A DNA stretch of 64,000 nucleotides from Sulfurimonas sp. (GCF_019429335.1 NZ_JAHYJB010000002.1:62343-126342); one strand, 5' to 3'; counted from the first letter of the stretch, positions 6,981 to 34,068 are shown. A program made the numbers and translations. Notes: generated by a model from the sequence alone, not told the origin.

Positions 6981-7079
6981 CCCTTTGTCTTCCGTTGAAA
7001 AGTTTAAGATAACTTTTAGAAGCAATATTAAAGAAAATTACTATAGACTTAGGACTTATTTAAATTTTTGGGGAAAGAA

Positions 7080-9194: not shown

Positions 9195-10156
9195 TATTTT
9201 ATTCCCGTAGCGCTTCTTATCTTCTCAATGGCAGGGAGCGCTATCTCTCTTGCTTTGGCTGCGCCTGCCTTTAAAATCTCTCTAACCTCGTCCTGATGAG
9301 CTTCGAAGTACTCTCTCTTTTCTCTAAACTCTCTAAAATACTCCCACATTATCTCTCCGAGATAAACCTTGAAATGACCATGCCCCTCGCCGCCACTTTT
9401 ATATCTCTCTTGAAGCGCTTTTAAATTATCACCCTCCAAGAAGAGTTTTGCCATATTGTAAACATTACATGTCTCATACTCTTTTGGCTCTTCTAGCGCT
9501 ACATTCTGTGTAACTATTTTTTTTATCACCTTTAGCTGCTCCATCTCTTCGCCAAATATATTTACAACATTTTTGTAGCTCTTTGACATCTTCTGCCCGT
9601 CAATCCCAGGAACGGTGGCTACTTCCTCTTGAACTCTAAACTCTGGAACGGTTAATATCTCTCCGTATTGGTTGTTAAATTTGATAGCGATATCTCTAGC
9701 AATTTCAACATGTTGAATCTGGTCTTTTCCTACAGGAACAACATCTGAGTTAAAGAGCAGAATATCTGCCGCCATCAAAACAGGATATGAAAAAAGTGAG
9801 TGGTTTGCAGCGATCCCTTTTGCAGTTTTATCCTTGTAGCTATGCGCACGCTCTAACAGACCCATAGGCGTAAAGGATGAGAGAATCCAGTATAGTTCAA
9901 GCACCTCTTTGACATCTGATTGAACCCAGAAAACTGATTTTTGAGGATCTATGCCAAGCGCCAAAAAGTCTGTTGCGCACTGCATTGTCAGCTCGCCAAG
10001 ACGTTTACCGTCACTTACACTCGTCATGGCATGGTAGTTTGCAATAAAAGCAAAGGTTTTGCTTCGTGACTGAGCTTCTACCATCTGTTTTATCGAACCG
10101 AAATAGTTTCCGATGTGCAAATCGCCCGAGGGCTGAATACCTGTTAAAACTCTCAT
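9191..10156 (-). CDS. trpS: Tryptophanyl-tRNA synthetase
   Basis: TGIQPSGDLHIGNY (HIGH motif), VPVGKDQIQH, KMSKS. Confidence 0.97.
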   Translation of the reverse strand: MRVLTGIQPSGDLHIGNYFGSIKQMVEAQSRSKTFAFIANYHAMTSVSDGKRLGELTMQCATDFLALGIDPQKSVFWVQSDVKEVLELYWILSSFTPMGLLERAHSYKDKTAKGIAANHSLFSYPVLMAADILLFNSDVVPVGKDQIQHVEIARDIAIKFNNQYGEILTVPEFRVQEEVATVPGIDGQKMSKSYKNVVNIFGEEMEQLKVIKKIVTQNVALEEPKEYETCNVYNMAKLFLEGDNLKALQERYKSGGEGHGHFKVYLGEIMWEYFREFREKREYFEAHQDEVREILKAGAAKAREIALPAIEKIRSATGIKY

Positions 10157-10271
10157 TAATATAACTCCAAAATTTCTAAATATTTATCTGTGGTATTATA
10201 CATTTTTTAGCTTTATTTCGATATGATTAAATGAAATATGGTAGTCAAAACTGCCCAAAAAAGGATTTATT

Positions 10272-10601
10272 ATGAATTTACAAGTTCATGCAAAAGGTGT
10301 AACACTTCACGCAAATACAAGAGCTCATATTGAAGCAGCGGTAGAGAGTTTTAAAAAATATTCTCTAGATATCACTACGGTACATGTTAATTTAAAAACA
10401 GAGAAAAATGGTATATTGGTAGAGTTTGACATTCATATTGCGCATGCTCAGCCTGTGGTTATCAATCAAGTGGATGATGATTTGGATACGGCAATTGACT
10501 TGGCGATAGAAAGAGCTACAAAAGCGCTTCGCCGTCTTCATGACAAAGTAATTTCGCATAACGGGGCTTCTATTAAAGAGATGGAAGTTGTGATAGACTA
10601 A
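10272..10601 (+). CDS. Short ribosome hibernation factor (HPF/RaiA, S30EA family), paralog without the C-terminal domain
   Basis: DLDTAIDLAIERATKALRRLHDK matches the S30EA helix and resembles 37242..37784. Confidence 0.8.
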   Translation: MNLQVHAKGVTLHANTRAHIEAAVESFKKYSLDITTVHVNLKTEKNGILVEFDIHIAHAQPVVINQVDDDLDTAIDLAIERATKALRRLHDKVISHNGASIKEMEVVID

Positions 10602-10604
10602 TTT

Positions 10605-11027
10605 ATGTACAGCTGGATGCTCTGGTTTCACATAATCTCTTTGGTTTCATGGTTCGCGGCTCTTTTTTACATGCCGCGCCTTTTTGTCTACCACGCCGAA
10701 AACATCGATAATGAAGGCTTTGTAAAAGTTGTTAAAATTATGGAGATGAAGATTTATAAGTATATAGGTCTTCCTGCAATGTGGGCAACGCTGATTAGCG
10801 GTGCATATCTTGCGTATGAAATCGGTTTTGGCGGCAATGGCTGGCTACATGTTAAAATAGTTTTAGTTCTTATTTTAATGGGATACTTTTTTTCACTTGG
10901 GTTTTTTAGAGAGAAATTTTTAAAAGATGAGTGTAAAAAGAGCGGGAAGTTTTTCAGAGCTTACAACGAAGTTCCGACAATTCTGCTTCTTGCTATTGTG
11001 GCATTGGTTATAATAAAACCGTTTTAA
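10605..11027 (+). CDS. hemJ: Protoporphyrinogen IX oxidase HemJ
   Basis: FHIISLVSWFAALFYMPRLFVYHAE, WLHVK, FRAYNEVPT. Confidence 0.92.
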   Translation: MYSWMLWFHIISLVSWFAALFYMPRLFVYHAENIDNEGFVKVVKIMEMKIYKYIGLPAMWATLISGAYLAYEIGFGGNGWLHVKIVLVLILMGYFFSLGFFREKFLKDECKKSGKFFRAYNEVPTILLLAIVALVIIKPF

Positions 11028-11033
11028 AAACAT

Positions 11034-11148
11034 AATTTTATAACTATACGTAGTGAACGATTCTGCAACAAATGGGTCAAATTTTGTAATTCAAAATTTG
11101 GGGTACCCATCGTGAAGCCTAAGTGAATGAGTATTAGTTATAAAAATT
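11034..11148. repeat. MITE/REP-like palindromic element between convergent hemJ and der
   Basis: Imperfect terminal inverted repeats (aattttataacta-tac / gtattagttataaaaatt); central hairpin atgggt-caaattttg-taatt-caaaatttg-gggt-acccat; internal direct repeat agtgaaYga at 11052 and 11122. Confidence 0.6.
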
Positions 11149-11168
11149 TAGAAAGTAAAAAAGTTTTT

Positions 11169-12656
11169 TTACTTCTCTCCGCGTTTTTTAGCTTTAAAGA
11201 GAACAGGTGAGCCTGTAAAGTTAAAGGCTTCTCTTAGTTTGTTTGTCAGATATCTTCTGTATGTAAAGTGAAGACCTCTTGGTTTATTCATGATAATAGC
11301 GATTTTTGGCGGTCTTGTCTCATACTGTGTCGCATAGTAGATTCTAATTACCTGTCCGCGCATACTTGGAAGTTGATGGCGGATAAGCGCTCTCTCCAGT
11401 ACAACATTTAGTTCGGATGTTTTAATATGCTGCGTGTAGTTGTCGTTTATCTCTAAAATCATATCAAAAAGCTTATCGACACGTCTGTGTGATTTTGCAG
11501 ATAGCGTAATGATTGGCGCATATGATAAGAACTTAAATCTATCACGGACCTCTTGGATGATTTTGTCATAATCTTCTCTGTTTGCAATATCCCATTTGTT
11601 TAAAACGATAATACATGCAAGGCGGTTGCTGTCAACTAAACCTGCAATTTTCTCATCAAGGTCCAAAAGCGGCTCGCTCGCATCTAAAACAACAAGTGCC
11701 ATGTTGGAGTTTTCAAGCATCTCTTTTGTACGCATTAGAGCAAATTTCTCGATACCAACGATTTTGCCGCGTCTTCTTAATCCTGCAGTATCAACGAAAG
11801 TGAGCTGTTTATCTTTGTACTCGATGCTCTCATCAATCGGGTCGATTGTAGTTCCCGCAACGCTGCTTACAACAGAACGTTCTTCGCCTAAAAGTGCATT
11901 AAGAAGTGAGCTTTTACCGACATTTGTACGTCCGATGATAGAGATTTTTATATGGTTTGCATCTTCTGGATTGTACTCTTTGATTTTGTCGTTTTGCGCA
12001 AAAATGGAGTCATCTGCAAACTCCTCTTCCTCTTCATCCTCGTCTGTATAAAAAAAGTTGTCATCCTCTTCCTCTTCGTTATAAGCATCATTATCAAAGT
12101 CATATTCGCTATCATCTTCTTCTACGATGTTTACGTCATCCTCTTCACCCTCTTCTTTGATGATGTCTTCTTCGGGCAATCTGTCATAAATCCACTCTAA
12201 AAGAGAGTTTACGCTCCTGTTGTGAGAGACAGAGATTCCAAATATGGCATCAGTTCCAAACTCGTAAAAGTCCCAAAGATTATCTTTTAGCTTGTCGTTA
12301 TCGATTTTATTAACGACTAACGCTACCTCTTTACCTAGAGTTTGAAGCTCGTAAAAGAGTTTTTTGTCACCATCTTCCGGGATGCTTTTCCCATCCACCA
12401 TAAACAGAATGATGTCCGCTTTTTTTGCGGCTTCAAGTGATTTTTCTTTGATTTTGTCAAAAAGTTCGCACCCTTGATCAAGCCCGCCTGTGTCTAAAAG
12501 TAGTGCGGCTTTGTTTAAGATGACTACATCTCGTCTCTTAACATCTCTTGTTGTTCCTGCTAGATCGGATGTAATAGCGTCTCTTTTTTTGACAAGTCTG
12601 TTAAAAAGTGAGCTTTTGCCAACATTTGGACGACCGATTATTGCGATTTTTTTCAT
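11169..12656 (-). CDS. der: Ribosome biogenesis GTPase Der (EngA)
   Basis: Two G-domains (GRPNVGKS/DTGG and GRTNVGKS/DTAG) and a C-terminal KH-like domain; long acidic linker. Confidence 0.97.
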   Translation of the reverse strand: MKKIAIIGRPNVGKSSLFNRLVKKRDAITSDLAGTTRDVKRRDVVILNKAALLLDTGGLDQGCELFDKIKEKSLEAAKKADIILFMVDGKSIPEDGDKKLFYELQTLGKEVALVVNKIDNDKLKDNLWDFYEFGTDAIFGISVSHNRSVNSLLEWIYDRLPEEDIIKEEGEEDDVNIVEEDDSEYDFDNDAYNEEEEDDNFFYTDEDEEEEEFADDSIFAQNDKIKEYNPEDANHIKISIIGRTNVGKSSLLNALLGEERSVVSSVAGTTIDPIDESIEYKDKQLTFVDTAGLRRRGKIVGIEKFALMRTKEMLENSNMALVVLDASEPLLDLDEKIAGLVDSNRLACIIVLNKWDIANREDYDKIIQEVRDRFKFLSYAPIITLSAKSHRRVDKLFDMILEINDNYTQHIKTSELNVVLERALIRHQLPSMRGQVIRIYYATQYETRPPKIAIIMNKPRGLHFTYRRYLTNKLREAFNFTGSPVLFKAKKRGEK

Positions 12657-20199: not shown

Positions 20200-20601
20200 A
20201 TGATGGCCACTAGACATCAAGCCAGAATGGCAGTTGTAAGCCTGTTGTACGCATTTGATTTGGGCAACGGAAACATTGCAGAGCATACGGATGAGATTTT
20301 AGAAGAGAAGAAGATTCGCAACAAGCAAAAAGATTTCGCACTTACGCTCTATGAGGGTGTTATGAAAAATATAGAGCCGGTTGACGTGGCAATAGTTAAA
20401 CATCTGAAAGATTGGGATTTTGAGAGACTTGGAGCTATAGAAAGAGCAACGCTCAGACTTGCAACTTATGAGATACTTTACGGCGAACTAGACTCTGCGG
20501 TGGTTATAAATGAAGCGGTTGAGATAACAAAAGCATTTGGAACAGAACAATCTCCTAAGTTTATAAACGGTGTTCTTGACGCAATTTCAAAAGATAAATA
20601 A
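20200..20601 (+). CDS. nusB: Transcription antitermination factor NusB
   Basis: ATRHQAR, IERATLRLATYE, VINEAVEITKAFG, FINGVLD. Confidence 0.96.
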   Translation: MMATRHQARMAVVSLLYAFDLGNGNIAEHTDEILEEKKIRNKQKDFALTLYEGVMKNIEPVDVAIVKHLKDWDFERLGAIERATLRLATYEILYGELDSAVVINEAVEITKAFGTEQSPKFINGVLDAISKDK

Positions 20602-20647
20602 CTGACCTTACGCACTTTTGCAAAAAAGTTCGTAAATACCTCTAATT

Positions 20648-20744
20648 TTCTCGAAAAGTACCCTTTTCGTAGCTTTAGGGGGTTGTAGGGACATTTGTCC
20701 CTGCCACTAAAACGGACGAGTTCGTTTTAGTGCGTAACATCAGT
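20648..20744 (+). repeat. Structured three-hairpin interspersed element, copy 2 (downstream of nusB)
   Basis: Direct-orientation homolog of 18700..18797, with compensatory stem changes and altered loops. Confidence 0.85.
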
Positions 20745-20824
20745 AAATAATTCTACCTCCTCAGAGGTAAGCTTCAGTGCCTAAGCGGCTAGCGTAGCAA
20801 ATTTGGGCTTAGCTCAAATTGCGT

Positions 20825-22469
20825 TCAAAAATAGAGTCTAATAGTAAAAACGGCTCCCTCTTGGGAGTTTTTTACACTTAGTTTCCCTCCCATTTTATCC
20901 TCAATAATCGTTTTTGCCAGATAGAGCCCGATGCCCGTTCCCTTGTCTTTTTTTGTGCTAAAGTAGGGGTCCAAATATCTTCTCTTTTAGTTCATCTTCT
21001 ATACCCAGAGCATTGTCGCAAACTTCAATAATGATGCTGCCGTTCTCTTCTCTTATGTTGATGTTGATTTTGCCATCTTGCACAGCTCTCTCCTCTATAG
21101 CGTCTTTGGCGTTGACGATGAGATTGAGCAGGACTTGAGAAAACTCATTTTTATTTGCAAAGAGAGCAGTTTTTTGCGAAGAGTTGATGGATAGTTTGAT
21201 GTTTGAGTGTCTTATGGGTTCACCGATGATATTTAAAACACTTTGCAGTGCATCTTCTATAAAAAACTCGGTTTTACTTGCATCATTTTTATAAAAATCT
21301 CTAAAGTTATCGACGGTGTTTGACATAAACTCTATTTGAGAAAGTGCGCTTTGCATGGAGTCGTTAAACATCTTATCGCTCATTTTTTCTTTTGTTTTAA
21401 ATGCTTTAAGGTTTTGAAGTATAAGAGAGACTCTTGTGAGCGGTTGCCTCCATTGATGGGCAATGTTTGCCACCATCTCTCCGAGTTCTGCAAGTTTGCT
21501 TTGGTTTTGAAGCAGTGTGTCGAGTCTTTGGGCTTGAAGTGCTACAAGATCAAATATATTTTTGAGTGCTTTTGTAAAGATAACGGTAAAGAGAAGTGCC
21601 ATAATGACGGCAAAAAGAAGGATAACGCCTATCATTTTATTGTTATAGTTTTTTGTTTTTTGCAGCGTTGCTTCATTTTCAACTAATAGCATATCTACTT
21701 TGTGCACCCCTACAAAAAGCGGCTGCAAAAGATGTTTTTTCTCTTTTGCTTCATCTTTTATGTCAGCTTTTGTCCACTCAAGCTCTTTTTCATGGTGCTT
21801 GATAAAGTAGCCCTCTTCGTTTACCAAAGAGATATCATAAAGTGTGGAGCTTATTATATTTTGTAAAAAGGCATCCATAAAAACATTTATGATCAGAATT
21901 CCTTTAAATTTTTCTTTAATGTAGACAGGCGTAGCAAACCGAATCACTGATTTATGCGGAATTTCAACCTTTTCATGTTCTACATTGAGGTCGATATTTG
22001 AGATAAAAACCTCATTTTGCTCCATTTTGGAGATCTCTTGAAAATAGTCTCTCTGTGCCTTGTCTTGCAGACTTTGCGTTTTTTTGATTTTTTGCGACTC
22101 TCTGTCTCTCTCAAACCTCAAAAGCTCCAAACCATTTTTATCTATATAACGCATCTGCATGTAATCTTTGTTCGCTTCCATAAGCGTTAAAAAGAGCAGA
22201 TCTACAAAATAGTTCTCTTTTGCTTTAAACGTAAAATCTAAAAACTGCTCATTTTGCGAAACGGCGAGTAGCGCATCTTTTTTCATCTTTATATGTGCAT
22301 CAAACTTCTCTTTTTTCTCACCGCTTTGAAGCTTTGCCTCTTTTAAAAACTGCTGTGTTTGCTGCTCTTTTGAAAAATAGAGATGCACAACGGCGATAGA
22401 GAGGATTAGGATAAGCGTAAAGATGATGTAGGAGAAAAAAAGCTTGATACCAAATTTTAGTTTATTCAT
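20825..22469 (-). pseudogene. Sensor histidine kinase (Cache-like periplasmic domain, HisKA, HATPase) with a +1 frameshift near the 3' end
   Basis: H-box NIAHQWRQPL; N-box QVLLNLIVNAKDA. The ORF stops at IFGPLL*. Removing one G at 20971-20972 restores [50 protein letters not shown] ending at 20825. Confidence 0.85.
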
Positions 22470-23118
22470 AGCTGCTTATCTTGTACCCTGCATTTCTTAC
22501 ATTGAGTATGAAGTTTTCTTGCAGTTTAGCGCGCAACTTTTTTATCTGCGTTCTTAGTGTGTTGTCCTGCACCTCTTTGTTGTCCCAAATGTAATCTTTT
22601 AAAATATCGGTGGTTATAATTTGGTTGATGTTTTTACTTAAAATATAAAGAAGTTTTTTTTCATGTCCGGTTAAATCAACTACTTCATCTTTGTAAAAAA
22701 GCCCCATAGTGCTAAGATTAAAATGATAATTCTCGCTGATTTTTACACTGTTTTTCGCCGTATCTTGATAAAGAATCTGACTGATTCTAAGCTCCAACTC
22801 TTCAAGCAAAAAAGGCTTTCTTACATAGTCGCTGCACCCTAAATCATACCCTCTTTTGACATGTTCTATATCACTTTGGGCAGTTATGTAGATTGCGGGA
22901 GTCATTATGTTTTCTTTGCGAATCTCTCTAAGCGTCTCAAAACCGTTTTTTTTAGGCGTGTTAATGTCGAGCAAAAATATGTCGTAGTTTTGCAAGAGAG
23001 CGTTATCTAAAAGCGCTTCCCCATCATGAAAATAGTCAACCTGATGGTCATTTAACTCAAAATAGTTTTGTATCTCTTTGCAGATAAATTCGTCGTCTTC
23101 TAAAAGCAGTATTTTCAT
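22462..23118 (-). CDS. OmpR/PhoB-family response regulator
   Basis: KILLLEDD, FLLDINTP (phospho-Asp), DYVRKPF, winged-helix end TLRTQIKKLRAKL...RNAGYKI. Confidence 0.93.
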   Translation of the reverse strand: MKILLLEDDEFICKEIQNYFELNDHQVDYFHDGEALLDNALLQNYDIFLLDINTPKKNGFETLREIRKENIMTPAIYITAQSDIEHVKRGYDLGCSDYVRKPFLLEELELRISQILYQDTAKNSVKISENYHFNLSTMGLFYKDEVVDLTGHEKKLLYILSKNINQIITTDILKDYIWDNKEVQDNTLRTQIKKLRAKLQENFILNVRNAGYKISSYE

Positions 23119-23135
23119 CTTTACCTAATCTCTCA

Positions 23136-23172
23136 GCACTTTAGCGGCACTTTTGTCTATTATCATTATAAT
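23136..23172 (+). promoter_or_regulatory. Divergent promoter with a GCACTTT-N4-GCACTTT direct-repeat operator
   Basis: gcacttt at 23136-23142 and 23147-23153 (11-bp period); ATTATAAT at 23165-23172 gives TATAAT on both strands. Confidence 0.65.
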
Positions 23173-23197
23173 GTAATCTCAAATGCAGGAGTAATTT

Positions 23198-25204
23198 ATG
23201 AAAATTATAACACTTATTTTCTTTTTATCTTTTTTTGTTCTCTTTAGGGAGTCGGCAACAGCTTCAAACAGCTTGGCTAAAGAGACATCGCCATACCTTT
23301 TACAGCATAAGGACAACCCAGTCGATTGGCAACCTTGGGGCGAAGAGGCATTTCTTAGGGCAAAAAAAGAGAACAAACTTATCTTTCTCTCTATCGGCTA
23401 CTCTACATGTCACTGGTGTCATGTGATGGCGCATGAGAGTTTTGAAAATGAGCATTTCGCAAAACTGCTCAACAAATATTTTATAAGCATAAAAGTGGAC
23501 AGAGAGGAGCTTCCGCATATAGACAGTTTTTATCAAAAGGTCTATGCAACTATGAACTCCAGAGGCGGCGGCTGGCCTTTGACGATTATGATGACGGCTG
23601 ATAAAAAGCCCTTTTTTAGCGGAACTTATGTTCCTTTGTCCGCAGGTTACGGTTCTCGTGGTTTAGTGGATATTATAAACAGCGTTTCAACAATCTCTCA
23701 TCAAAAATTAGCCCAGATGGGCGAAAAAGTGCTTTTGTCGGTTGAGCAGAGCCAAAAGTTTTCAAATCACAAAGCCCAGCTTATGTCAGGTCTTGCAAAC
23801 AAAACTATCAGCGACTTTAAATCATATTACGACTTTAATAACAGCGGTTTTTCAAATCGACCGAAATTTCCCGAGGCTTCAAAAATCATACTGCTTCTGA
23901 AACTTTACGAGATAACAAAAAACAAAGAGAGTCTTGACATGTCGCTTAGCGCGTTGGACGCTATGGCAAAAGGCGGGATTTACGATCAGATAGAGGGCGG
24001 TTTTTACAGATATACGGTCGATGAGAAGTGGCAGATTCCCCATTTTGAGAAGATGCTCTACACAAACGGAGAACTTCTTGAAGCCTACTCTTTGGCATAC
24101 AAACATACTAAAAACCCGCTCTATAAAAAAATCATAGATGAGACAATCGCCCAAATGGATAAAAGATTTCAAATCGGCGGCGTCTACATGAGCGCAAGCA
24201 ATGCCGATAGCAAAAACCGCGAAGGAAAAAATGAGGAAGGATTTTACTTTGTCTATGAGCACGACGAAGCGTTTGAGTATCTCAAAAAAAGAGGTTTAAA
24301 AGAGTCGGTGATAAACGCTGCACTTGGGTATCTGGGAATAACGGAAGATGGAAACTTTGAGGGGCACTTGAGCAATCCGCATATCACGGCAGATGTCGCG
24401 CCAAAAGCTCTTCAAAGGGCAAAAGAGCTGCTTTTGGAGATGCGCAAAACAAGAGAGTATGCTTTTGTGGCCAATAAGATAAACACCGCTTGGAACGCAC
24501 TCTACATCAAAGGGAAGTTTAAAGCCGCAATAGCGGATAAAAAGTACGTCATGCAAGCAAAAAAATCTCTTGATGCGCTGCTTGAAAAGATGTATGTAGA
24601 TAGTGAACTTTATCATCAGAGTGTTCCAAATGTAAAACCTACGCAAAAGGCTCTGCTTGAGGATTATGCTTTTTTGACAAGCGCTCTTTTTGAGGTGTAT
24701 CAGGCGACTTTGGAGCAGAGATATTTTGAGCTCTACAAAGAGATTGCTGAAAAAAGTATAACACTCTTTTATAGAGAGGGCAGATGGTTGGAGTCAAACG
24801 ACGGCTTTGTAACATACGCAGACATAAGCGAAAGAGCCTACGCAAGTGCGTTGGCACAGCAAAGTATCAACCTTTTAAATTACGCCACCGTTTTGGCTGA
24901 TATGAAAAAGTTTGCGATGGCAAAAGAGATAGTAGATAATTTTGCAAAATCGATAAACGCAAACCCCTCAAGTTATCCGACCGCCACGCTAGCATCTCTT
25001 ATGTTTGAATATGAGCCCATCTTTATAAAATCAACAAAGAGTAATTTGGATAGTTTTGATGCAAACGACATAAAGTACCCCTTTGTTTACAGGTATGTTT
25101 ATGATGCAGATGAGTATCTGGCATGCAAGATAAACAGCTGTTTTAGTTACGGTGCAGAGTTTGAAAAAGTGAAAAAAGATATTGAGTCTCTCTTAAAGAG
25201 GTAA
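23198..25204 (+). CDS. YyaL/DUF255 (SPATA20-like) thioredoxin-domain protein with six-hairpin domain and N-terminal signal peptide
   Basis: [74 protein letters not shown]. Confidence 0.92.
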
Positions 25205-25206
25205 AA

Positions 25207-25251
25207 GCACTTTGTAGGCACTTTAGACATGTACTATTGCTTAACTATAAT
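25207..25251 (+). promoter_or_regulatory. Second GCACTTT-N4-GCACTTT operator and -10 upstream of the RND operon
   Basis: gcacttt at 25207-25213 and 25218-25224; TATAAT at 25246-25251; AAAGGA RBS before ATG 25268. Confidence 0.62.
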
Positions 25252-25267
25252 AGTTAAAGGAATAATT

Positions 25268-28200
25268 ATGCTAGATTTAGCTTTTAAAAACAAACATCTT
25301 ATTGTTGTTTTGTCACTGCTTATCGCAGTTATTAGCGTTATTGTCACAGCGCGGCTTCCCGTGGATATTTTACCAAGCTACAATACCCCCGCGGTTCAGG
25401 TCTTAACGCTTTATCCTGGAATGCCTGCTGAAGTAATGGAAAAAGACATAACAAGTCGTCTTGAGCGCTGGACCGGCCAGTCAAACGGGATTGTAAAACA
25501 AGAAAGCAAAAGTATGATTGGGGTTAGCATTGTTAAAGATTTCTTTAGCGAAAACACAGACCCAAATACAGCCCTTTCGCAGGTTACTTCATTGGCAATG
25601 TCGGACTTGTACTATCTTCCGCCCGGAACCGTTCCTCCGATGGTTATGCCTTATGATCCGACGGCTTCAACTCCTCTGGCGCTGCTAGCGGTTAGCAGTG
25701 AGAGCATGAGCGAGAAAGAGCTTTATGATGTTGCCTATTTTCAATTGCGAAATTTGCTAGGTTCTGTTGATGGAATTATCGCTCCTGCCGTGTATGGAGG
25801 AAAACTTCGCCGAATTTTTATGTATGTCTATCCCCAAAAATTACAGGCATACAATCTCTCTCAAAGCGATGTTTTAAACGCCTTGCAAAAAAACAATGTC
25901 ATGATACCCACGGGCGATGTAAATATTGGAAATATCAACTATAGTGTTAATGCCAATGGAATGCTGCCCAAGGTGGATGATTTTAACGACATGGTTATCA
26001 AAATAGGCTCAAACGGCGCACCTATATTTCTCAAAGATATCGGTTACGCCAAAGATTCCAGCGCTATTCAAACCAATGTTGTTCATATCAACGGCAATCG
26101 GCAAGTTTACATTCCTATTTACAAGCGTACGGGTGCGAACACTATTGCATCCGTAAATGCGGTTAAAGACAAGCTCTCCGATCTTAAAGAGCGTCTGCCT
26201 GCATCCATAAATCTTGATGTCATCCTTGATCAGTCAAGCTATGTACGCAATTCGATTGACGGACTTATCAAAGAGGGCATTATTGGGCTAATGTTAGTCT
26301 CAGCGGCGCTGCTTCTTTTTTTAGGAAATATACGCTCTACCTTTATTGTTGCACTTAGTATTCCGCTCTCGGTAATGTTTGCCTTTATCGGACTCTATTT
26401 TACGGGCGACACTATCAATTCTATCACGCTGGGCGGTATCGCTTTGGTTATCGGATTGCTGGTGGATGACAGTATTGTTGTACTGGAAAATATCGACAAA
26501 CATCTAAAATTGGGCAAAACATCGGCTCAAGCGGCGTATGACGGAGCCAAAGAGGTTGCTCTTCCTGTACTGGTGACAACTTTGACTATTATCATTGTTT
26601 TCTTCCCGATTCTCTTTTTGACCGGTATCTCCAAGTTCTTATTCGCTCCCTTGGCAATCACTGTTTCACTAGTGATGATCGGTTCTCGATTTTTTTCAAT
26701 GACGCTTGTTCCCATCATGGCGGCTGCTTTTTTTAAAGGTTTCGACGAAAAGAAGAAGCCAAAAGGTTTTCTGGGTGCTTTTGAAAAAGGGTTTGAAGCC
26801 CTCACTCATGGCTATGTCCAAACCATGGACGGTGTACTTAAAATGCGATGGCTGATTTTAGGCATGGTTTTAGCACTGTTTCTCCTTTCTTTATTTGGAT
26901 TTCAAAAAATCGGACGAGAGTTATTTCCGCAAATGGATGTAGGTCAAATCTCTATGGATGTACGTATGGAAAGCGGAACAAGGCTTGAGAGTACGGAGAA
27001 GACTATAACAAGCATTGAGAATTTTATTAAAAAAGAGATAGGCGATGATGTAAATCTGATTGTCTCAAACATGGGAGTCCTCAATGACTGGCCCGCAGCA
27101 TACACCTCTAACTCAGGAACGCAAGACAGTACTATATCAGTACAACTCAAAGAGCATCATGCGACCAAAACCGTGGAGTACGTGAAGCGTCTGCGTGTAA
27201 AACTTAAAGAGGAGTTCCCCGGAGTCGGATTTATTTTTAACACAGGCGGGATTATAACGAGTGCACTTAACTTTGGACTTCCATCGCCGATTGATATACA
27301 AATAATAGGCAATGATTTGCATAAGGCTCATGAGATTGCAGTAAGAGTGCGTGAAATTGTTCAAAACATACGAGGCACTGAGGATGTTCGTATCCATCAG
27401 CGTTATGACCATCCGGAAATTAAAGTCGACATTGACAGAACAAAAGCGGCAATGTTGGGAATAAATGCAGACGAGGTTGTTAAAAATACAGTTTCAGCTC
27501 TCAACTCCTCGGTCAATTTTAAGCCATCGTTTTGGATAGATGAAAAAAACGGTAATCACTATTATGTCGGAGTTACTTACCCTGAAATAGAGTTAGATGA
27601 CCCAAAATCTGTTGAGAACATTACCATGATGGGAACAAACGGAAAAATAACACAGCTTAAAAATATTGCAACGACATCTCTTACATCGGCTCCTATTGAG
27701 ATTAATCATCTCGATTTGCAACGCGTTACAGATGTGTATGCTAATGTTGAGGGAAGAGACATCGGCTCAGTTGCAACCGAAGTAGAGCAGGAGCTCCAAG
27801 AGTTGCGCAAAGAGATTCCTGATGGGTATAAAGTAGAGATAAAAGGGGAGATACAAAGCATGAAGGAGAGCTTTAGTAACCTGGGTTTAGGTTTGGTGCT
27901 TGCTGTTTTTCTTGTCTATCTGGTTATTGTTCCGCTGCTGCGCTCATTTACTCTACCGCTAATTATTATCGCAGTTATCCCTTTGGGACTTATCGGTGTT
28001 GTTGCAATGCTCTTGGCAACAGATACTTATCTTAATATACAATCTATGATGGGGATCATTATGATGGTGGGAATTACCGTTGCCTATAGCAATCTGCTCG
28101 TTGATAAAATGAACAATCTTTACAATGAAGGCAAAAATCTGCACGAAGCAATTAAAGAGGGGGTTGCGAACCGCTTCCGCCCTATTATTATGACGGCAAC

Positions 28201-28378
28201 GGTTGCCATCTTGGCTATGGTGCCCATGGCGCTTGGGTACGAAACGGGCGGAGAAGCCAATGTTCCGTTGGCTCGCGCCATCATAGGCGGAGTTGCAGCT
28301 GCAACGGTTTTATCGCTGTTTATTGTGCCTATATTGTTCTTTTTATTTCATAAAAAATCTAATTCTCAAGGAAATTAA
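25268..28378 (+). CDS. RND efflux inner-membrane transporter (AcrB/CzcA superfamily)
   Basis: LPVDILP, GLLVDDSIVVLENI (proton-relay DD), RFRPIIMT; about 1036 aa from ATG 25268. Confidence 0.95.
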   Translation: MLDLAFKNKHLIVVLSLLIAVISVIVTARLPVDILPSYNTPAVQVLTLYPGMPAEVMEKDITSRLERWTGQSNGIVKQESKSMIGVSIVKDFFSENTDPNTALSQVTSLAMSDLYYLPPGTVPPMVMPYDPTASTPLALLAVSSESMSEKELYDVAYFQLRNLLGSVDGIIAPAVYGGKLRRIFMYVYPQKLQAYNLSQSDVLNALQKNNVMIPTGDVNIGNINYSVNANGMLPKVDDFNDMVIKIGSNGAPIFLKDIGYAKDSSAIQTNVVHINGNRQVYIPIYKRTGANTIASVNAVKDKLSDLKERLPASINLDVILDQSSYVRNSIDGLIKEGIIGLMLVSAALLLFLGNIRSTFIVALSIPLSVMFAFIGLYFTGDTINSITLGGIALVIGLLVDDSIVVLENIDKHLKLGKTSAQAAYDGAKEVALPVLVTTLTIIIVFFPILFLTGISKFLFAPLAITVSLVMIGSRFFSMTLVPIMAAAFFKGFDEKKKPKGFLGAFEKGFEALTHGYVQTMDGVLKMRWLILGMVLALFLLSLFGFQKIGRELFPQMDVGQISMDVRMESGTRLESTEKTITSIENFIKKEIGDDVNLIVSNMGVLNDWPAAYTSNSGTQDSTISVQLKEHHATKTVEYVKRLRVKLKEEFPGVGFIFNTGGIITSALNFGLPSPIDIQIIGNDLHKAHEIAVRVREIVQNIRGTEDVRIHQRYDHPEIKVDIDRTKAAMLGINADEVVKNTVSALNSSVNFKPSFWIDEKNGNHYYVGVTYPEIELDDPKSVENITMMGTNGKITQLKNIATTSLTSAPIEINHLDLQRVTDVYANVEGRDIGSVATEVEQELQELRKEIPDGYKVEIKGEIQSMKESFSNLGLGLVLAVFLVYLVIVPLLRSFTLPLIIIAVIPLGLIGVVAMLLATDTYLNIQSMMGIIMMVGITVAYSNLLVDKMNNLYNEGKNLHEAIKEGVANRFRPIIMTATVAILAMVPMALGYETGGEANVPLARAIIGGVAAATVLSLFIVPILFFLFHKKSNSQGN

Positions 28379-28379
28379 C

Positions 28380-29471
28380 ATGAGTTCACTTATAACATTT
28401 TTAACCATTACTATTCTATTTTTCAGTGGATGTACAAACGATGCTGCTCAAAAAGAGGTCGTGAAGACAGAAGAAAAAAGAGTGCCTACGGTTCTTGTCG
28501 CCAATCCTCAAAAACATGAGTTTGATGCCTCTATATCAATTGCAGGGAGTGCAAAACCAAATCAGCAGGTTAAAATATTTGCCATGAGTGACGGGTATCT
28601 CAAACAGACAACCGTTGATATCGGAGATTTTGTCCGTGGGGGAGATGTTGTTGCCGTATTGGACAACCCGGAACTGCTTAGCCAAAGAGCAAAGCTACAG
28701 GCGGAGTTTAACGGTAAAAAAGCACTCTATGAGAGACTTAGAAATGTTTATGAAAAAACGCCGCAACTTACCAGTATTTTTGATGTAGAAAATGCCAAGG
28801 CTGAGTTTGAAAGCCTTAAAGCAGAGCTGAGCGCCGTAGCGGTACAGATTGCTTATCTGAGCGTAAAAGCCCCTTTTTCGGGAGTGATAACTCAGCGTTT
28901 TGTCGACAAAGGGGCTATCATTCAAAATGCACTGAACAACGCAAACAGTGCCGCATTGTTTGAGATTCAAGATATTGATCCGATTCGTTTAAATGTCGAT
29001 GTTCCCGAGAGCGACGCACCGCTCATATATAAAGGGATGATTGCAAATATTGTTTTTCCCGAATTGCCAAATCAAGATTTCAGCGCGAAGGTCTCCCGTA
29101 CCTCTTTTGGCTTGGATGAGGCTACCAAAACCATGAAGGTGCAAATCGATATTTCAAACAAAGAGTTTACGATACGTCCGGGAATGTACGCCAAAGTCAA
29201 CATCTCAATCAACGGGCATAAAGATACACTCTCTGTCTTAAACGAAGCACTCGGCAATATAAAGGGGGAGTCCTTTGTTTACGTGGTTGAGAACCAAAAG
29301 GTTAGAAAAGTAGTCGTCAAAACAGGAATCCGAGACAACAAGTTTACAGAAATTCTAAACGGCGACATAGATGCTGAGGATGCGGTTGTCGTTCAGGGAA
29401 AAGAGTTCTGCTCTGATGGCGCATCGGTTGATGCCAAATCTTTGACAAACAAAAAGGAGCGACCGCTATGA
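28380..29471 (+). CDS. RND periplasmic adaptor (membrane fusion protein), lipoprotein
   Basis: Start MSSLIT at 28380 with AAGGA; lipobox FSGC; VDIGDFV, VKAPFSGVIT, IRPGMYA. Confidence 0.92.
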   Translation: MSSLITFLTITILFFSGCTNDAAQKEVVKTEEKRVPTVLVANPQKHEFDASISIAGSAKPNQQVKIFAMSDGYLKQTTVDIGDFVRGGDVVAVLDNPELLSQRAKLQAEFNGKKALYERLRNVYEKTPQLTSIFDVENAKAEFESLKAELSAVAVQIAYLSVKAPFSGVITQRFVDKGAIIQNALNNANSAALFEIQDIDPIRLNVDVPESDAPLIYKGMIANIVFPELPNQDFSAKVSRTSFGLDEATKTMKVQIDISNKEFTIRPGMYAKVNISINGHKDTLSVLNEALGNIKGESFVYVVENQKVRKVVVKTGIRDNKFTEILNGDIDAEDAVVVQGKEFCSDGASVDAKSLTNKKERPL

Positions 29472-30772
29472 AAACCATGAGATATGTTCTTGTTAGTGCT
29501 CTTTTTAGTGCGCTGCTTTATGCTGCCGAGACGGTCTCTGTTGACTTGCAGAGCGTTTTGCAATTGGGCGGTGCAAATAATCTCACCATCAAAGAGTTCC
29601 AATCAAAGCAGGAAGAGGCATTGAGGGATTTGGAAAAAACCAAAGAGTGGTGGCTGCCAAATATTTATGCAGGGGTAAAAACCCAGCAGTTATGGGGAGC
29701 CGCAATGAACGGCAACGGCAATTTTTATACCGATGTCGACAGCGACAATCTCTGGGGCGGAGTAGGGGTAAGGATGCGGCTTGACTTTGCCGAGGGCATC
29801 TATAAAACCAAGGCGGCACAATTAAGTGCAAAGGCGTACTCTTATGAGAGCGATGCCGAAAAAAACAGGGTACTTCTTTCATGTGTAAATGCTTACTATG
29901 ATATGGCGTTTGAGCAGTTGAAATACGGCGCATACAAAAATTTGGCAGAGCAATCCGATCTGCTTATGCAGCAGATAGGGCTTCAGGTGGAGGCGGGTCT
30001 GCGCTATCAGTCAGAGCTACTGTTGGCTAAAGGTAATCATGCACATCTGAAACTGGAGATGATGAACGCGCAATCCGACTATGGGCGTAAATCGGCAGAG
30101 TTGGTACGCCTTCTCAACCTTCAAAGCAGCGTCAAGCTCTCTAGTGCCGAAAACTTTCTGCTTCCTTTGGATTTTCAAGCAGGATCCGGTGGAGACGATG
30201 ATAGGGCGGAAACCAAAGCCATAGACACCTCGATTCTCTCATTACAAGAACAAAAAAAGAGTATTACCAAGGGTCTTTGGATGCCTGAGTTAAGCATTGA
30301 TACCTATGCATCCTATTTTGGAGGTTTGAGCGGTGATGTGACACCTGTAGTACCAAACCAAGGCTCAAAACAGCTCTACCCGACACAGGCTTTGAATGTC
30401 TCTTTGTTATGGAATATACCGCTGGGAGAGCTTCTTTATCGTTCAAACGAGGAGAGATACAATGCGAAAATCCAGACAGAGCGGGTAAAACTGCAACAAA
30501 TGAAAGCACAGATCAACGAAGAGGTTACCAATGCTACCCAAGATATAGAGTTGGGAAAAGAGAAAATAATTCTCTCGAAAGAGGCATTAAATATGACAGA
30601 AGAGGCATTGAGCCAAAGTATAGAACGCCAGAAACTTGGAACAGCAAAGCCATTTGAAGTGTTTCAGGTACAGCAGTTTTATTTGCAAGCACAGCTTAAT
30701 CACTTAAGGGCGATCAGTGATTACAACAAAGCTCAGTTTGCTTTAAAAGTAGCAAAAGGCGAGACGCTTTAG
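29468..30772 (+). CDS. TolC-family outer membrane channel
   Basis: Signal peptide; two OEP-like repeats; ends AISDYNKAQFALKVAKG; ATGA-coupled to the MFP. Confidence 0.88.
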   Translation: MKTMRYVLVSALFSALLYAAETVSVDLQSVLQLGGANNLTIKEFQSKQEEALRDLEKTKEWWLPNIYAGVKTQQLWGAAMNGNGNFYTDVDSDNLWGGVGVRMRLDFAEGIYKTKAAQLSAKAYSYESDAEKNRVLLSCVNAYYDMAFEQLKYGAYKNLAEQSDLLMQQIGLQVEAGLRYQSELLLAKGNHAHLKLEMMNAQSDYGRKSAELVRLLNLQSSVKLSSAENFLLPLDFQAGSGGDDDRAETKAIDTSILSLQEQKKSITKGLWMPELSIDTYASYFGGLSGDVTPVVPNQGSKQLYPTQALNVSLLWNIPLGELLYRSNEERYNAKIQTERVKLQQMKAQINEEVTNATQDIELGKEKIILSKEALNMTEEALSQSIERQKLGTAKPFEVFQVQQFYLQAQLNHLRAISDYNKAQFALKVAKGETL

Positions 30773-30781
30773 CTTCCCTAA

Positions 30782-30927
30782 AGTATTCCAAATGTAAAAC
30801 CTGTGCAAAAAGCTTTGCTTGAAGATTACTCTTTTTTGATAAGCACTCTTTTTGAAGCATATCAAGCTGTTTTAGCTACGATGCAGAGTTTGAAAAAGTG
30901 AAAAAAGATATTGAGTCTCTTCAATAA
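30782..30927 (+). pseudogene. Internally deleted remnant of a second yyaL/DUF255 3' end
   Basis: 30782-30867 matches 24620-24705 ([28 protein letters not shown] vs [28 protein letters not shown]). 30865-30920 matches 25136-25191 ([19 protein letters not shown]). Confidence 0.88.
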
Positions 30928-30996
30928 CCGCTGATTTAATTGAGTTTTCAAATTTTTTTGCTATTATCACACACAAGTATAAATGAGGATTGTGCT

Positions 30997-32928
30997 ATGA
31001 AAAATGAGATAGAAAAGTTTGATAAATATCTTAAAAAAATGAGTAAAAATAGGCTCAATGCCTTAGGCGAAGTTGGTTTTATACTTCTTGGTCTTATAAA
31101 AAAACAAGCTGACACAAATATGCAACCGCTTATCAACAGGATAACGGCAGAACAAGAGTTTGAATCTATTGAAAAAGCTAATATGTTCTTAAAGACATAC
31201 TTTGATTTTCACAATAAATTTATCAATTATACTTCTGCTATGTTTATGATAGAAGATGAAGAGAAGTTTGCTATGCGAATAGAAAACCTTGTGACTTATC
31301 TTTTAAAAAGTATGCCGATTCAAGAGCAAAAAAAGTTTATTGTCGACTTTGTAGACATGGTTTATGATGAAGTTTTTGAAGAGTTTGCGTTTAGTATTGC
31401 AGAAAATGAAGACCCTGCCCAAAGTATGGCAAAAGCTACAAAAATTTTTGGAAGTGAAGGGTTGGCTTTTCTGTTTTACTCATTAATCGGCATTACTCAT
31501 GAATTGGAAGAAGATAAAAGCATCACAACTCAAAAACAGATGACAGAACTAGCAACTCCCATATTTGTATTTTTGTTAGCTCTTAATGAGCAAAGAAAAA
31601 ATCAATTTTTAGAGCAAAATCAAACAAAAGAGAATCAATCTACTAAGAACTCTTTTTACAATGTAGGTAGAAATGACCCATGCCCCTGTGGGAGTGGGAG
31701 AAAATATAAAAAATGCTGTCTCAATAAAAATGAGCGAAAGTCAGATGCCATAACCGTTACCGAAAAACCCTTAAATGCCCGAGAATCTCTTAGTGAAAAA
31801 GAGATGGGAGAGTTTTACAATACTTGGACAAAGTTTTTTGAATTTGCATCGAAAATTTACTCCCAAATGTATGATTTGAAATATCAAAAATCATATATTA
31901 AAGATGAGTATGGAAGATTTACTCTTGATGAAGATGTGATTGATTCAAATTTAGCAAGTAATGCGAGGGGCTTTATTGCTATTAATTTTCAAAAACTAAG
32001 CGACGAATTTCAATCAACAAGAGCATCGAAAAAAGATAAAGAGATTATAGAGCAGATGAGCCTTTCTTATAAGTTTTCAAAGTTTTACATCTCCTCAATT
32101 TTTGGAGACGGAAGTGCGGTGCTTTTTGATACACAAAGCGAGATAAGCTATTTTGTACACTCTTTGTATGATCCTCTTGGTATAATGATTGAACCGTATC
32201 AGCTTTTTGAAACTACACTTCTGTTTTATAAAGGCAGAATTATAGCAGATGGGATTTACGCACTCTACAATATGCAGATAGGTGACAATATGAAACAAAT
32301 GCTTCAAAAAAGTTATGAAGAAAGTTCCCAGAACATACAGCTTGTTCTATCAAAAAATGAGATTAAACATAAAATTTATCAGCTCAAAATCAACATAAAA
32401 GGCTCAAAGCCAAATATCTGGAGAAAAGTACAAGTACCGGCAAGTTTAAGCTTTTACGGACTTCATACTGTTATTCAAACTCTTTTTGGTTGGTATGAGT
32501 CACATTTGTGGGAGTTTGTTACGGAAAATGGAAACTATTTGGATGAAGAAGAGGTTTCTTCACAAGCATTGTTTTCAGATAAAAAAGAGTTTCCGGCACA
32601 AAAATTTAGTATAGAACATGTTCTCAAAAATGAAAAAGAGAAGATGCTTTATGTGTATGATTTTGGAGATGATTGGGTGCATAATATAGTTTTGGAAAAA
32701 ATTATTATAAGCGATGAAGAGCTATTGCATCCAAAATTTATCAGCGGAAAAAGGGCTGCACCTTTTGAGGATTGTGGCGGGATATATGCTTATAATGAGA
32801 TAGTGCAAGCTATTGAAAACCCGACAGATGAGGGCAGAGATATGTTAGAAGAGTATGGCATAGAACCTTTTGATACTGATTATTTTGATTCAAAAAGATT
32901 AGCGAAACTTCTTGATGGAAACGGGTGA
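30997..32928 (+). CDS. SEC-C zinc-finger + plasmid pRiA4b ORF-3-like domain protein
   Basis: VGRNDPCPCGSGRKYKKCC; C-terminal IWRKVQVP...LHTVIQTLFGWYESHLWEF...YVYDFGDDWVH...APFEDCGG. Confidence 0.85.
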   Translation: MKNEIEKFDKYLKKMSKNRLNALGEVGFILLGLIKKQADTNMQPLINRITAEQEFESIEKANMFLKTYFDFHNKFINYTSAMFMIEDEEKFAMRIENLVTYLLKSMPIQEQKKFIVDFVDMVYDEVFEEFAFSIAENEDPAQSMAKATKIFGSEGLAFLFYSLIGITHELEEDKSITTQKQMTELATPIFVFLLALNEQRKNQFLEQNQTKENQSTKNSFYNVGRNDPCPCGSGRKYKKCCLNKNERKSDAITVTEKPLNARESLSEKEMGEFYNTWTKFFEFASKIYSQMYDLKYQKSYIKDEYGRFTLDEDVIDSNLASNARGFIAINFQKLSDEFQSTRASKKDKEIIEQMSLSYKFSKFYISSIFGDGSAVLFDTQSEISYFVHSLYDPLGIMIEPYQLFETTLLFYKGRIIADGIYALYNMQIGDNMKQMLQKSYEESSQNIQLVLSKNEIKHKIYQLKINIKGSKPNIWRKVQVPASLSFYGLHTVIQTLFGWYESHLWEFVTENGNYLDEEEVSSQALFSDKKEFPAQKFSIEHVLKNEKEKMLYVYDFGDDWVHNIVLEKIIISDEELLHPKFISGKRAAPFEDCGGIYAYNEIVQAIENPTDEGRDMLEEYGIEPFDTDYFDSKRLAKLLDGNG

Positions 32929-33018
32929 GTTGTAATTTTTGTGCTTGGTTTTGTTCTTTATCGCTTTGTTTTTAAAAAAAGGGTAAAATCCAATCATTAA
33001 AAAGAGAAACGGTTGGAA

Positions 33019-34068
33019 ATGAAAAGATTGACAAAAGAAGAGGCGCTTCATCTCATACGAAATGCAGACTTAAAAGAGCTCGGGCGTATGGCGACGGCTC
33101 GCAAAAAAGAGCTGCACCCAGACAATATCACCACTTTTGTGGTGGATAGAAATATCAACTATACTAACATCTGCTGGGTGGACTGCAAGTTTTGTGCATT
33201 TTACAGACATGAAAAAGATGCGGATGCTTACGTTTTGACGTTTGATGAGATAGACGCAAAGATTGATGAGCTGCTTGAAATCGGCGGTACGCAGATACTT
33301 TTTCAAGGCGGTGTGCATCCAAAACTCAAAATAGAGTGGTATGAGGATTTGGTTGGGCATATCCATACCAAATACCCCACAATTACCATTCACGGCTTTA
33401 GTTCAATCGAAATAGATTTTATAGCTAAAGTCTCGCGCATTAGCGTGGAAGAGGTTTTAGAGAGGCTGCATGCAAAAGGATTGGCTTCTATCCCGGGGGC
33501 AGGGGCTGAGATACTCTCCGACAAAGTTCGTGACATCATCGCTCCAAAAAAAATTGACAGCGAAGTCTGGGTTGATATTCATAGAAAGGCTCATAAACTC
33601 GGCATTATGTCGACGGCTACTATGATGTATGGAACTATTGAGAGCGACGAAGATATCGTAGAACATTTTGATATGATAAGAAAACTTCAGGACGAAACAC
33701 ACGGTTTTAGAGCATTTATCATGTGGAGTTTTCAAGGGCAAAATACGGAGTTGTTGAGGCTTATTCCAGACATGGAGAAACCTTCGTCAAACCGTTACCT
33801 AAGACTTCTTGCAGTTGCGAGACTCTATCTTGATAATGTGCCAAATATCCAAAGTTCATGGGTAACACAGGGTCCATATATCGGGCAGATGGCTCTTAGA
33901 TTTGGAGCAAACGATTTAGGTTCTACTATGATGGAAGAAAATGTCGTAAGCTCTGCGGGTGCAGCCTACAAAATGGCAAAGAGCGAGATGGTACACCTCA
34001 TAAAAGATATAGGAGAGATACCTGCGGTGCGAAATACGGCGTATGAGATTTTAGAGAAATTTGCATAG
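33019..34068 (+). CDS. mqnC: Dehypoxanthine futalosine cyclase (radical SAM, futalosine menaquinone pathway)
   Basis: VVDRNINYTNICWVDCKFCAF, GAGAEIL, IQSSWVTQG, GANDLGSTMMEENVV. Confidence 0.93.
   Translation: MKRLTKEEALHLIRNADLKELGRMATARKKELHPDNITTFVVDRNINYTNICWVDCKFCAFYRHEKDADAYVLTFDEIDAKIDELLEIGGTQILFQGGVHPKLKIEWYEDLVGHIHTKYPTITIHGFSSIEIDFIAKVSRISVEEVLERLHAKGLASIPGAGAEILSDKVRDIIAPKKIDSEVWVDIHRKAHKLGIMSTATMMYGTIESDEDIVEHFDMIRKLQDETHGFRAFIMWSFQGQNTELLRLIPDMEKPSSNRYLRLLAVARLYLDNVPNIQSSWVTQGPYIGQMALRFGANDLGSTMMEENVVSSAGAAYKMAKSEMVHLIKDIGEIPAVRNTAYEILEKFA

Follow-up and report, generated by a model that had tools for sequence, protein, structure and literature searches.

The window, by which we mean the whole stretch of 64,000 nucleotides from Sulfurimonas sp. 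analysed here, carries at 20825-30772 six genes flanked by nusB (20200-20601) and by a PRiA4_ORF3/SEC-C gene (30940-32928). Two of them, on the minus strand, encode a sensor histidine kinase and an OmpR/PhoB-family response regulator; diverging from these are yyaL, for a protein of the YyaL/DUF255 family, and the genes for a resistance-nodulation-division (RND) permease, a membrane fusion protein (MFP) and an outer-membrane factor of the OEP/TolC family. An earlier interpretation, here called the sequence-only reading, had given this description, which Pfam and NCBIfam matches bear out, and had noticed an identical repeat, GCACTTT-N4-GCACTTT, before yyaL and before the pump genes; the repeat is indeed exact at both places (boxes 1 and 2 in Table 1). 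We propose that the two boxes mark the two promoters of a regulon that belongs to a Campylobacterales-wide two-component family, and that the pump replaced a cytochrome behind box 2. To this reading we give a probability of roughly 0.7.

Table 1. Features of the segment 20825-30772 and of its right border, in window coordinates.
Feature	Position	Strand	Basis
Sensor histidine kinase	20825-22469	-	Pfam: periplasmic PF21623 sensor domain, HisKA, HATPase_c
Kinase as split in the assembly	20958-22469 and 20825-20986	-	Two frames; alignment with three intact relatives
OmpR/PhoB-family response regulator	22462-23118	-	Response_reg PF00072, 79 bits; Trans_reg_C PF00486, 54 bits
Box 1, GCACTTT-AGCG-GCACTTT, proposed operator at the yyaL promoter	23136-23153	+	Exact repeat
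Candidate -10 elements of yyaL: TATCAT, then directly TATAAT	23161-23166; 23167-23172	+	Sequence
yyaL/DUF255, 668 amino acids	23198-25204	+	PF03190, 218 bits; CHWC motif
Box 2, GCACTTT-GTAG-GCACTTT, before the pump	25207-25224	+	Exact repeat; 3 nt past the yyaL stop
Candidate -10 of the pump operon: TACTAT (7 nt past box 2) or TATAAT	25232-25237 or 25246-25251	+	Sequence
RND permease, 1036 amino acids	25268-28378	+	ACR_tran, 714 bits
MFP adaptor lipoprotein, lipobox FFSGC	28380-29471	+	TIGR01730, 178 bits, above cut-off; same gene call in L055
Outer-membrane factor, OEP/TolC family	29468-30772	+	PF02321, 109 bits
Remnant of a second yyaL 3' end	30782-30920	+	Identity to yyaL segments

The genome assembly is a draft of 73 contigs and 2,060,673 bases, and all contigs were scanned for the box. 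The two copies in the window are the only exact ones, against about 0.05 expected from the 467 GCACTTT heptamers of the genome, and just four sites elsewhere come within one mismatch. Beyond this genome, the box adjoins orthologous sensor systems in at least six other lineages. Orthologues of the kinase-regulator pair are found in Arcobacter sp. YIC-310 and BM504, in genomes G359, G329 and G099 of one family, in G161 and G298 of further families, in a Campylobacteraceae metagenome-assembled genome (MAG) and in a Sulfurospirillum arcachonense MAG; across these other Campylobacterales the regulators are 49-69% identical to that of the window, and the kinases 32-52%. For the pair at locus L083, the best match in the window genome is the window pair (62% for the regulator, 48% for the kinase), and the next regulator reaches 36%. 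The window regulator consists of an N-terminal receiver and a C-terminal winged-helix Trans_reg_C domain and attains no NCBIfam equivalog cut-off; its recognition helix, DNTLRTQIKKLR, is conserved in the box-associated orthologues, not in an unrelated OmpR-type regulator. In Arcobacter sp. BM504, the regulator gene at L092:7313-7969 has an internal stop in the frame that was tried, and may be a pseudogene or an artefact of the coordinates.

Box 1 is identical in Sulfurimonas crateris (G008), which is the closest relative in our search and has the same layout and the same two boxes, in a further Sulfurimonas MAG (L055) and at locus L046; it is exact, with spacer AGCA, in the Sulfurimonas contig L172. 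Box 2 is homologous to the sites at L172:5653 and at position 1980 of another Sulfurimonas contig, L173, both of which precede a 12-haem cytochrome gene. Boxes with zero to two mismatches lie upstream of such a cytochrome gene in all nine loci that include the region (L083, L085, L086, L087, L091, L092, L095, L172 and L173), and in L086 a thioredoxin/cytochrome c operon and the gene of an OprD-type porin are preceded by boxes too. Throughout, the heptamers are kept and the spacers vary: AGCG, GTAG, CAAA, GAAG, TGAG, GCAG, AGAA, ACAA and ATAG. About 240 kb of other loci contain no box with at most one mismatch outside these promoters, and the Bacteroidota pump loci, to which we return below, contain none.

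What follows the box is also conserved. Of 13 sites tabulated from several genera, 11 have a -10 hexamer of the form TAnnAT 7 nt past the box: TATCAT and TACTAT in the window, and elsewhere TAGAAT, TAAAAT, TAATAT, TATAAT, TATTAT, TACAAT and, twice, TAAGAT. The distance from box to TATAAT differs by 8 nt between the two window promoters, and the TAnnAT hexamer comes 7 nt after both boxes. The four one-mismatch sites of the genome were considered as additional members of the regulon and discarded, as they are without this arrangement. One of them, GCACTTTCTGGGCATTTT at C63:41085 (G000:C63:41040-41100, minus strand), sits inside the inverted repeat AAAGTGCCTTAAA...TTTAAGGCACTTT and resembles a hairpin, not a regulator site.

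The box is a tandem direct repeat with an 11-bp period, at or near the -35 position. Placing a box where the -35 element would be is the design of Pho-box promoters. Direct repeats of 7 bp with a strict 4-bp spacer are the dimer binding architecture of the OmpR/PhoB family, as found for PhoP of Mycobacterium tuberculosis (PMC4832192). From this 7-4-7 architecture, the fixed distance to the -10, the freely varying spacers, the conserved recognition helix and the occurrence of the box beside orthologous pairs, we take the adjacent OmpR-type regulator to be, very probably, the protein that reads the box as its operator; that it is an activator site we hold less firmly. We consider it hardly credible that the boxes are chance occurrences or by-products of duplication or recombination with no regulatory role. 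A duplicated yyaL 3' end does exist at this locus, but the duplication reaches no further than 25191, which leaves 16 nt to box 2, and only the heptamers match, the spacers and flanks being different, so that the boxes are not a simple duplication; their number in the genome against expectation, and their conservation beside orthologous regulators in other genera, argue against the same idea.

The gene that the box usually drives, in other genera, encodes a periplasmic cytochrome c of about 790-810 amino acids with 12 CxxCH motifs, as counted in the L083 and L173 proteins. L172 has, in order, the kinase (84% identical), the regulator (83%), box 1, yyaL (82%), box 2 and the multihaem cytochrome; L173 has yyaL, box 2 with one mismatch, and a 12-haem cytochrome of 792 amino acids. 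The conserved partner of YyaL is, by this comparison, the 12-haem cytochrome and not the pump. In Geobacter sulfurreducens, the extHIJKLMNOPQS cluster, whose ExtM is a 12-haem cytochrome, has been linked to selenite and tellurite reduction, a link that rests on an extI mutant and not on ExtM itself (PMC5877670). MccA and other solved octahaem enzymes were tried as identities for the cytochrome and ruled out, with no PDB match at E<0.01.

Two small exported thioredoxin-fold proteins of Thioredoxin_2 type accompany the cytochrome, as does a third of Thioredoxin_7/DsbH type, which scores above the DUF255 threshold in its own right; other companions are a mono-haem cytochrome c and, in one genome, the OprD-type porin with its own box. 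Arcobacter and others have the small periplasmic thioredoxin-fold proteins beside the cytochrome, and Sulfurimonas has the probably exported YyaL instead. That YyaL fills their place suggests a periplasmic thiol-redox role linked to the cytochrome or its substrate. GCACTTT-type boxes also accompany a distantly homologous sensor pair (L171, G102:C1:486000-503000; kinase 32% identical): one at about 6600, between the gene of a molybdopterin oxidoreductase exported by the twin-arginine (TAT) route and the regulator gene, the other at about 9050, before a NapC/NirT cytochrome gene that is followed by genes for a DsbH/DUF255-like thioredoxin (140 amino acids), CcsBA and HemA.

The window YyaL has the architecture of its family, a DUF255 thioredoxin-like domain with the CHWC motif and a C-terminal six-hairpin domain. 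PDB entry 7TKV aligns to its residues 22-511 (E 3e-81), and the C-terminal part gives a weak GH127-like match. A hydrophobic N-terminal leader of 23 residues precedes the domain. The genome has a second YyaL, on contig C62, which is cytoplasmic in type, present genus-wide and 39% identical to that of the window; with a leader that this paralogue lacks, the window protein is an accessory copy and probably exported. The DUF255/YyaL family is widespread and has, to our knowledge, no known function; our literature search found none for a bacterial member. The probably exported YyaL also occurs in a different genomic context: in L053:1687-5341 a TonB-ExbB-ExbD cluster ends with the gene of an orthologue (67%), whose start codon overlaps the preceding stop, beside znuABC and fur.

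In the window, the place of the cytochrome is taken by the pump. The alignment of the window with L172 runs through the end of yyaL and GGTAAAAGCACTTT(G/A)TAGGCACTTT, and diverges directly after box 2; homology to pumps of Bacteroidota and Ignavibacteria starts at the RND ATG. The window genome has no copy of the 12-haem cytochrome, and no orthologue of the pump was found in 300 sampled Campylobacterales genomes. Outside Sulfurimonas, its nearest named relatives, 78-84% identical, all belong to Bacteroidota or Ignavibacteria. Many are RND-MFP fusion proteins, which accounts for the unusual gene order RND-MFP-outer-membrane factor. The pump genes have 42-45% G+C, the genome 38%. Most simply, the pump was acquired recently from another phylum, replaced the cytochrome directly behind box 2 and so captured a regulator-dependent promoter. 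Most of the Bacteroidota and Ignavibacteria relatives are single polypeptides of 1390-1435 amino acids combining RND and MFP, as at L056:8001-12305 and L057:8001-12179, and a small open reading frame (ORF) of conserved size, 131-134 amino acids, with no Pfam match precedes the pump operons of these phyla.

The pump is a tripartite RND efflux system, with permease, periplasmic adaptor and outer-membrane factor encoded together; the gap between RND and MFP genes is 1 nt, and the outer-membrane factor gene overlaps the MFP stop by 4 nt. We place the RND start at 25268 and not at the ORF start, 25229, since the Pfam match and the Bacteroidota homologues begin there. The permease stays below the cut-off of every NCBIfam model. 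The heavy-metal efflux type (CusA/CzcA, TIGR00914) was rejected at 452 bits against a cut-off of 701, with LVDDSIVVLEN in the fourth transmembrane segment (TM4); the pump has neither of what we take to be the heavy-metal TM4 motifs, DFG..DGA..VEN for the CzcA type or the Met clusters of the CusA type. Among the multidrug HAE-1 models (NF033617, NF000282, TIGR00915) the best score is 619 bits against a cut-off of 1250, with the TM4 Asp-Asp pair present, and the PDB matches MdtB, MtrD, ZneA, CusA and AcrB are about equidistant. Neither its scores nor its TM4 motif make the pump recognisable as a heavy-metal or a multidrug type.

The sequence-only reading had cast YyaL and this pump as a functional pair, in which YyaL binds or modifies a thiol-reactive compound or metal that the pump then exports, and had held that a failure to co-occur elsewhere would speak against it. 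That failure is essentially what the neighbourhoods of DUF255, RND and two-component genes reveal: among the loci compared, only the window, S. crateris and L055 combine yyaL with this pump type. The pump type is in none of the nine YyaL orthologue contexts (58-82% identity) outside the window clade, nor in any of eight more distant YyaL loci (40-47%), and a conserved neighbourhood of yyaL, RND and sensor genes was discarded beyond the window clade. Another of its claims, that the two-component system induces both yyaL and the pump, fares better: a shared operator, very likely read by the adjacent system, would connect them, and the induction itself is suggested by the promoter layout. It had also expected the locus to provide a functional context for YyaL. 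A context there is, but with other partners: because the cytochrome, and not the pump, is conserved behind box 2, it would consist of the sensor pair, YyaL and the ExtM-like cytochrome.

A dedicated modify-then-export pair is accordingly unlikely in our view. It can appeal to the adjacency of yyaL and pump under a common operator, with no predicted terminator between them, to two orthologue contexts (at least 77% identity) in which yyaL abuts unrelated RND types (23-24%), convergently in L047 and directly downstream of one on the same strand in L049, and to the weak counter-hint that some RND gene lies within 10 kb in 4 of 15 wide-flank YyaL loci. But this pump type accompanies yyaL in three near-identical loci only, the conserved neighbour behind box 2 is the cytochrome, and in the phylum of its origin the pump lacks a yyaL partner, the two Bacteroidota/Ignavibacteria loci examined containing neither yyaL nor the sensor pair; moreover, other genera have small thioredoxin-fold proteins in YyaL's place beside the cytochrome, and no pump. 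The L049 locus (6768-12000 of a Sulfurimonas-like ENA contig) deserves a remark of its own: yyaL (77%) begins 14 nt downstream of the unrelated RND gene, and a diverged copy of the 3' end of that gene is repeated after yyaL, mirroring the duplicated yyaL 3' end of the window. Such repeats suggest integration by single crossover of circular intermediates.

Taken together, these comparisons outline the following mechanism for our preferred reading. The kinase would sense a periplasmic signal through its PF21623 domain and phosphorylate the regulator, a dimer of which would bind GCACTTT-N4-GCACTTT; the repeat would stand in for the -35 element, 7 nt upstream of the -10, as in a Pho box, and binding would switch on yyaL from box 1 and the downstream operon from box 2. 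Comparison with the other loci shows that the ancestral operon behind box 2 encodes the ExtM-like 12-haem cytochrome c, and that in the window genome, S. crateris and one further MAG a Bacteroidota-type RND-MFP-outer-membrane factor operon has replaced it. YyaL would then belong with the sensor and its signal, not with the pump as such. These sequence comparisons lend good support to the proposed co-regulation of yyaL and pump by the neighbouring sensor.

As for physiology, the regulon may provide an inducible defence of the periplasm against a toxicant that is reducible or thiol-reactive, export having replaced reduction. Such a detoxification reading is plausible, and the fact that a pump could take the cytochrome's slot lends it some indirect weight. 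A more specific proposal, that the sensor family detects a reducible thiol-reactive periplasmic toxicant and that the exported YyaL, like DsbH-type thioredoxins, handles the compound or its adducts, is tentative and, as we see it, rather doubtful; if true, it would for the first time define a biochemical role for the DUF255/SPATA20 family, and would make the exchange of cytochrome and pump a natural experiment in which one sensor can have either reduction or export as its output. The leading guess for the inducer, by analogy with ExtM, would be chalcogen oxyanions such as selenite or tellurite.

Several points weigh against the regulon as we read it, or against parts of it. The case for activation over repression comes down to the position of the box and the missing -35 element. 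A near-consensus sigma-70 promoter, TAGACA-N16-TATAAT (11 of 12 matches), abuts box 2, its TAGACA at 25224-25229 pairing with the TATAAT at 25246-25251, and could express the pump constitutively. The best NCBIfam match of the cytochrome, ExtM (NF040943), scores 217 bits where the cut-off is 800, for which reason we call it a homologue of ExtM and not an equivalog, and the PDB holds no solved relative of it at the threshold given above. The direction of the pump's transfer is drawn from the distribution of named matches, not from a rooted tree, and the pump form is limited to three genomes (the window's, S. crateris and L055), near-identical at this locus and all close relatives. Finally, the kinase is frameshifted in the window assembly.

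An alternative reading makes the boxes sites of repression or autoregulation: the regulator would block a constitutive promoter, and box 1 would mainly control the regulator-kinase operon. Box 1 lies 18-35 nt upstream of the divergent regulator start codon, between it and the palindromic -10 candidate CATTATAATG, and would thus sit in the regulator's leader, and the sigma-70-like promoter next to box 2 is strong. Yet about 12 promoters from several genera have a fixed N7 to the -10 and no -35, as expected of Pho-box-type activation, and most boxed promoters face structural genes rather than the regulator gene; repression is, to our mind, very unlikely.

The last of the points listed above concerns the window strain. 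The minus strand reads ATATTTGGACCCC in the window and ATATTTGACCCC in three relatives, G008, L055 and L172, whose kinases are intact (545-547 amino acids); the extra base, a plus-strand C at 20971-20972, shifts the frame by +1, splits HATPase_c and puts the F and G2 boxes in another frame. A real frameshift would mean a silent or decaying regulon in this strain: the regulator would never be phosphorylated and the boxes would be relics, as at L046, where 34 regulator codons are left together with box 1, which is exact, and a degenerate box 2, with no pump or cytochrome. L046 shows that such decay occurs, the main frame of the window kinase has lost the F and G2 boxes, and the yyaL remnant speaks for recombinational instability of the locus. 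Against this, neither kinase frame is otherwise interrupted, the 53-codon tail keeps 86-92% identity to those of the intact relatives, the two boxes remain exact, and a single-base insertion in a 73-contig draft may be an error. We regard decay in the window strain as possible, if doubtful; it does not conflict with the regulon proposed here for the lineage as a whole.

The borders of the locus bear traces of its assembly. The first part of the yyaL remnant, 30782-30867, is 84% identical to 24620-24705, and the second, 30865-30920, is 96% identical to 25136-25191, about 430 bp being deleted between the two. L055 shares the remnant (98.8% identical) and S. crateris lacks it; it is a scar of the recombination that built the locus. 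Identity between the window and S. crateris is itself a mosaic: 99.6% for RND, 99.5% for the regulator, 96% for YyaL, 93% for the kinase, 81% for MFP and 80% for the outer-membrane factor. On the left, the 230 nt between nusB and the kinase end (20602-20831), with an inverted repeat at 20594-20616 and 20729-20751, are missing in S. crateris, whose kinase gene stops 14 nt from nusB. On the right, the PRiA4_ORF3/SEC-C gene (30940-32928; 662 amino acids) that follows the remnant is 95% identical in L055 and absent from S. crateris, in which a CofH/Mqn-like radical-SAM gene (window 33013-34068) comes directly after the pump.

A search of the literature found no paper describing the GCACTTT box or this sensor family, so that the locus would represent a previously undescribed cross-genus Campylobacterales regulon with a precise operator and promoter design. 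A probably exported YyaL under a dedicated sensor, beside a 12-haem cytochrome, narrows the search for its substrate, and the pump offers a clean case of promoter capture, with an efflux operon from another phylum placed exactly behind a resident operator and a reductase swapped for a pump.

Among known systems, the nearest in operator design are the Pho-box promoters of PhoB/PhoR and PhoP of M. tuberculosis, which have in common with the window the winged-helix dimer architecture, two 7-bp repeats, a 4-bp spacer and an 11-bp period. The heptamer is different, GCACTTT and not CTGTCAT or TCACAGC, and Pho boxes of Escherichia coli stand 10 nt from the -10, against 7 nt in the window.

A sensor beside an RND pump is a familiar arrangement: CusRS-CusCFBA, CzcRS-CzcCBA, BaeSR-MdtABC and AdeRS-AdeABC all join an OmpR-type two-component system to a tripartite RND operon, its presumed target of induction. 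Unlike these, the window has the gene order RND-MFP-outer-membrane factor and a regulator far below the cut-offs (106 bits against 279 for TIGR01387), and its pairing is secondary, the pump having replaced a cytochrome behind a pre-existing operator.

Within the genus, SulRS of Sulfurimonas hydrogeniphila is the only experimentally studied OmpR-family system. SulR footprints two direct repeats, from -51 to -17 of its target promoters; its operator has TTACA repeats with the consensus TTTAYATTTAKKAGWTACAMTTA, its targets are the sox clusters and its signal is thiosulfate (PMC12936845). The window pair is not SulRS because its operator, GCACTTT, differs, and there are no adjacent sox genes. With the Geobacter ext cluster, the box-driven operons share a cytochrome of about 790 amino acids with 12 CxxCH motifs and, in L086, a boxed porin gene, whereas the partners ExtKL, N, O, P and S are absent here. 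Known YyaL/SPATA20/DUF255 proteins (PF03190; PDB 7TKV, 3IRA) and Chlamydia DsbH are alike in having a CxxC thioredoxin-like N-terminal domain, followed by the six-hairpin domain; the window copy differs from them in its signal-peptide-like leader, in being an accessory paralogue and in its place under a dedicated sensor. The design as a whole is that of an ordinary OmpR/PhoB-type regulon, and its mechanism is unsurprising: the interest lies in an operator kept across genera, in the swap of cytochrome for pump, and in a concrete context for DUF255.

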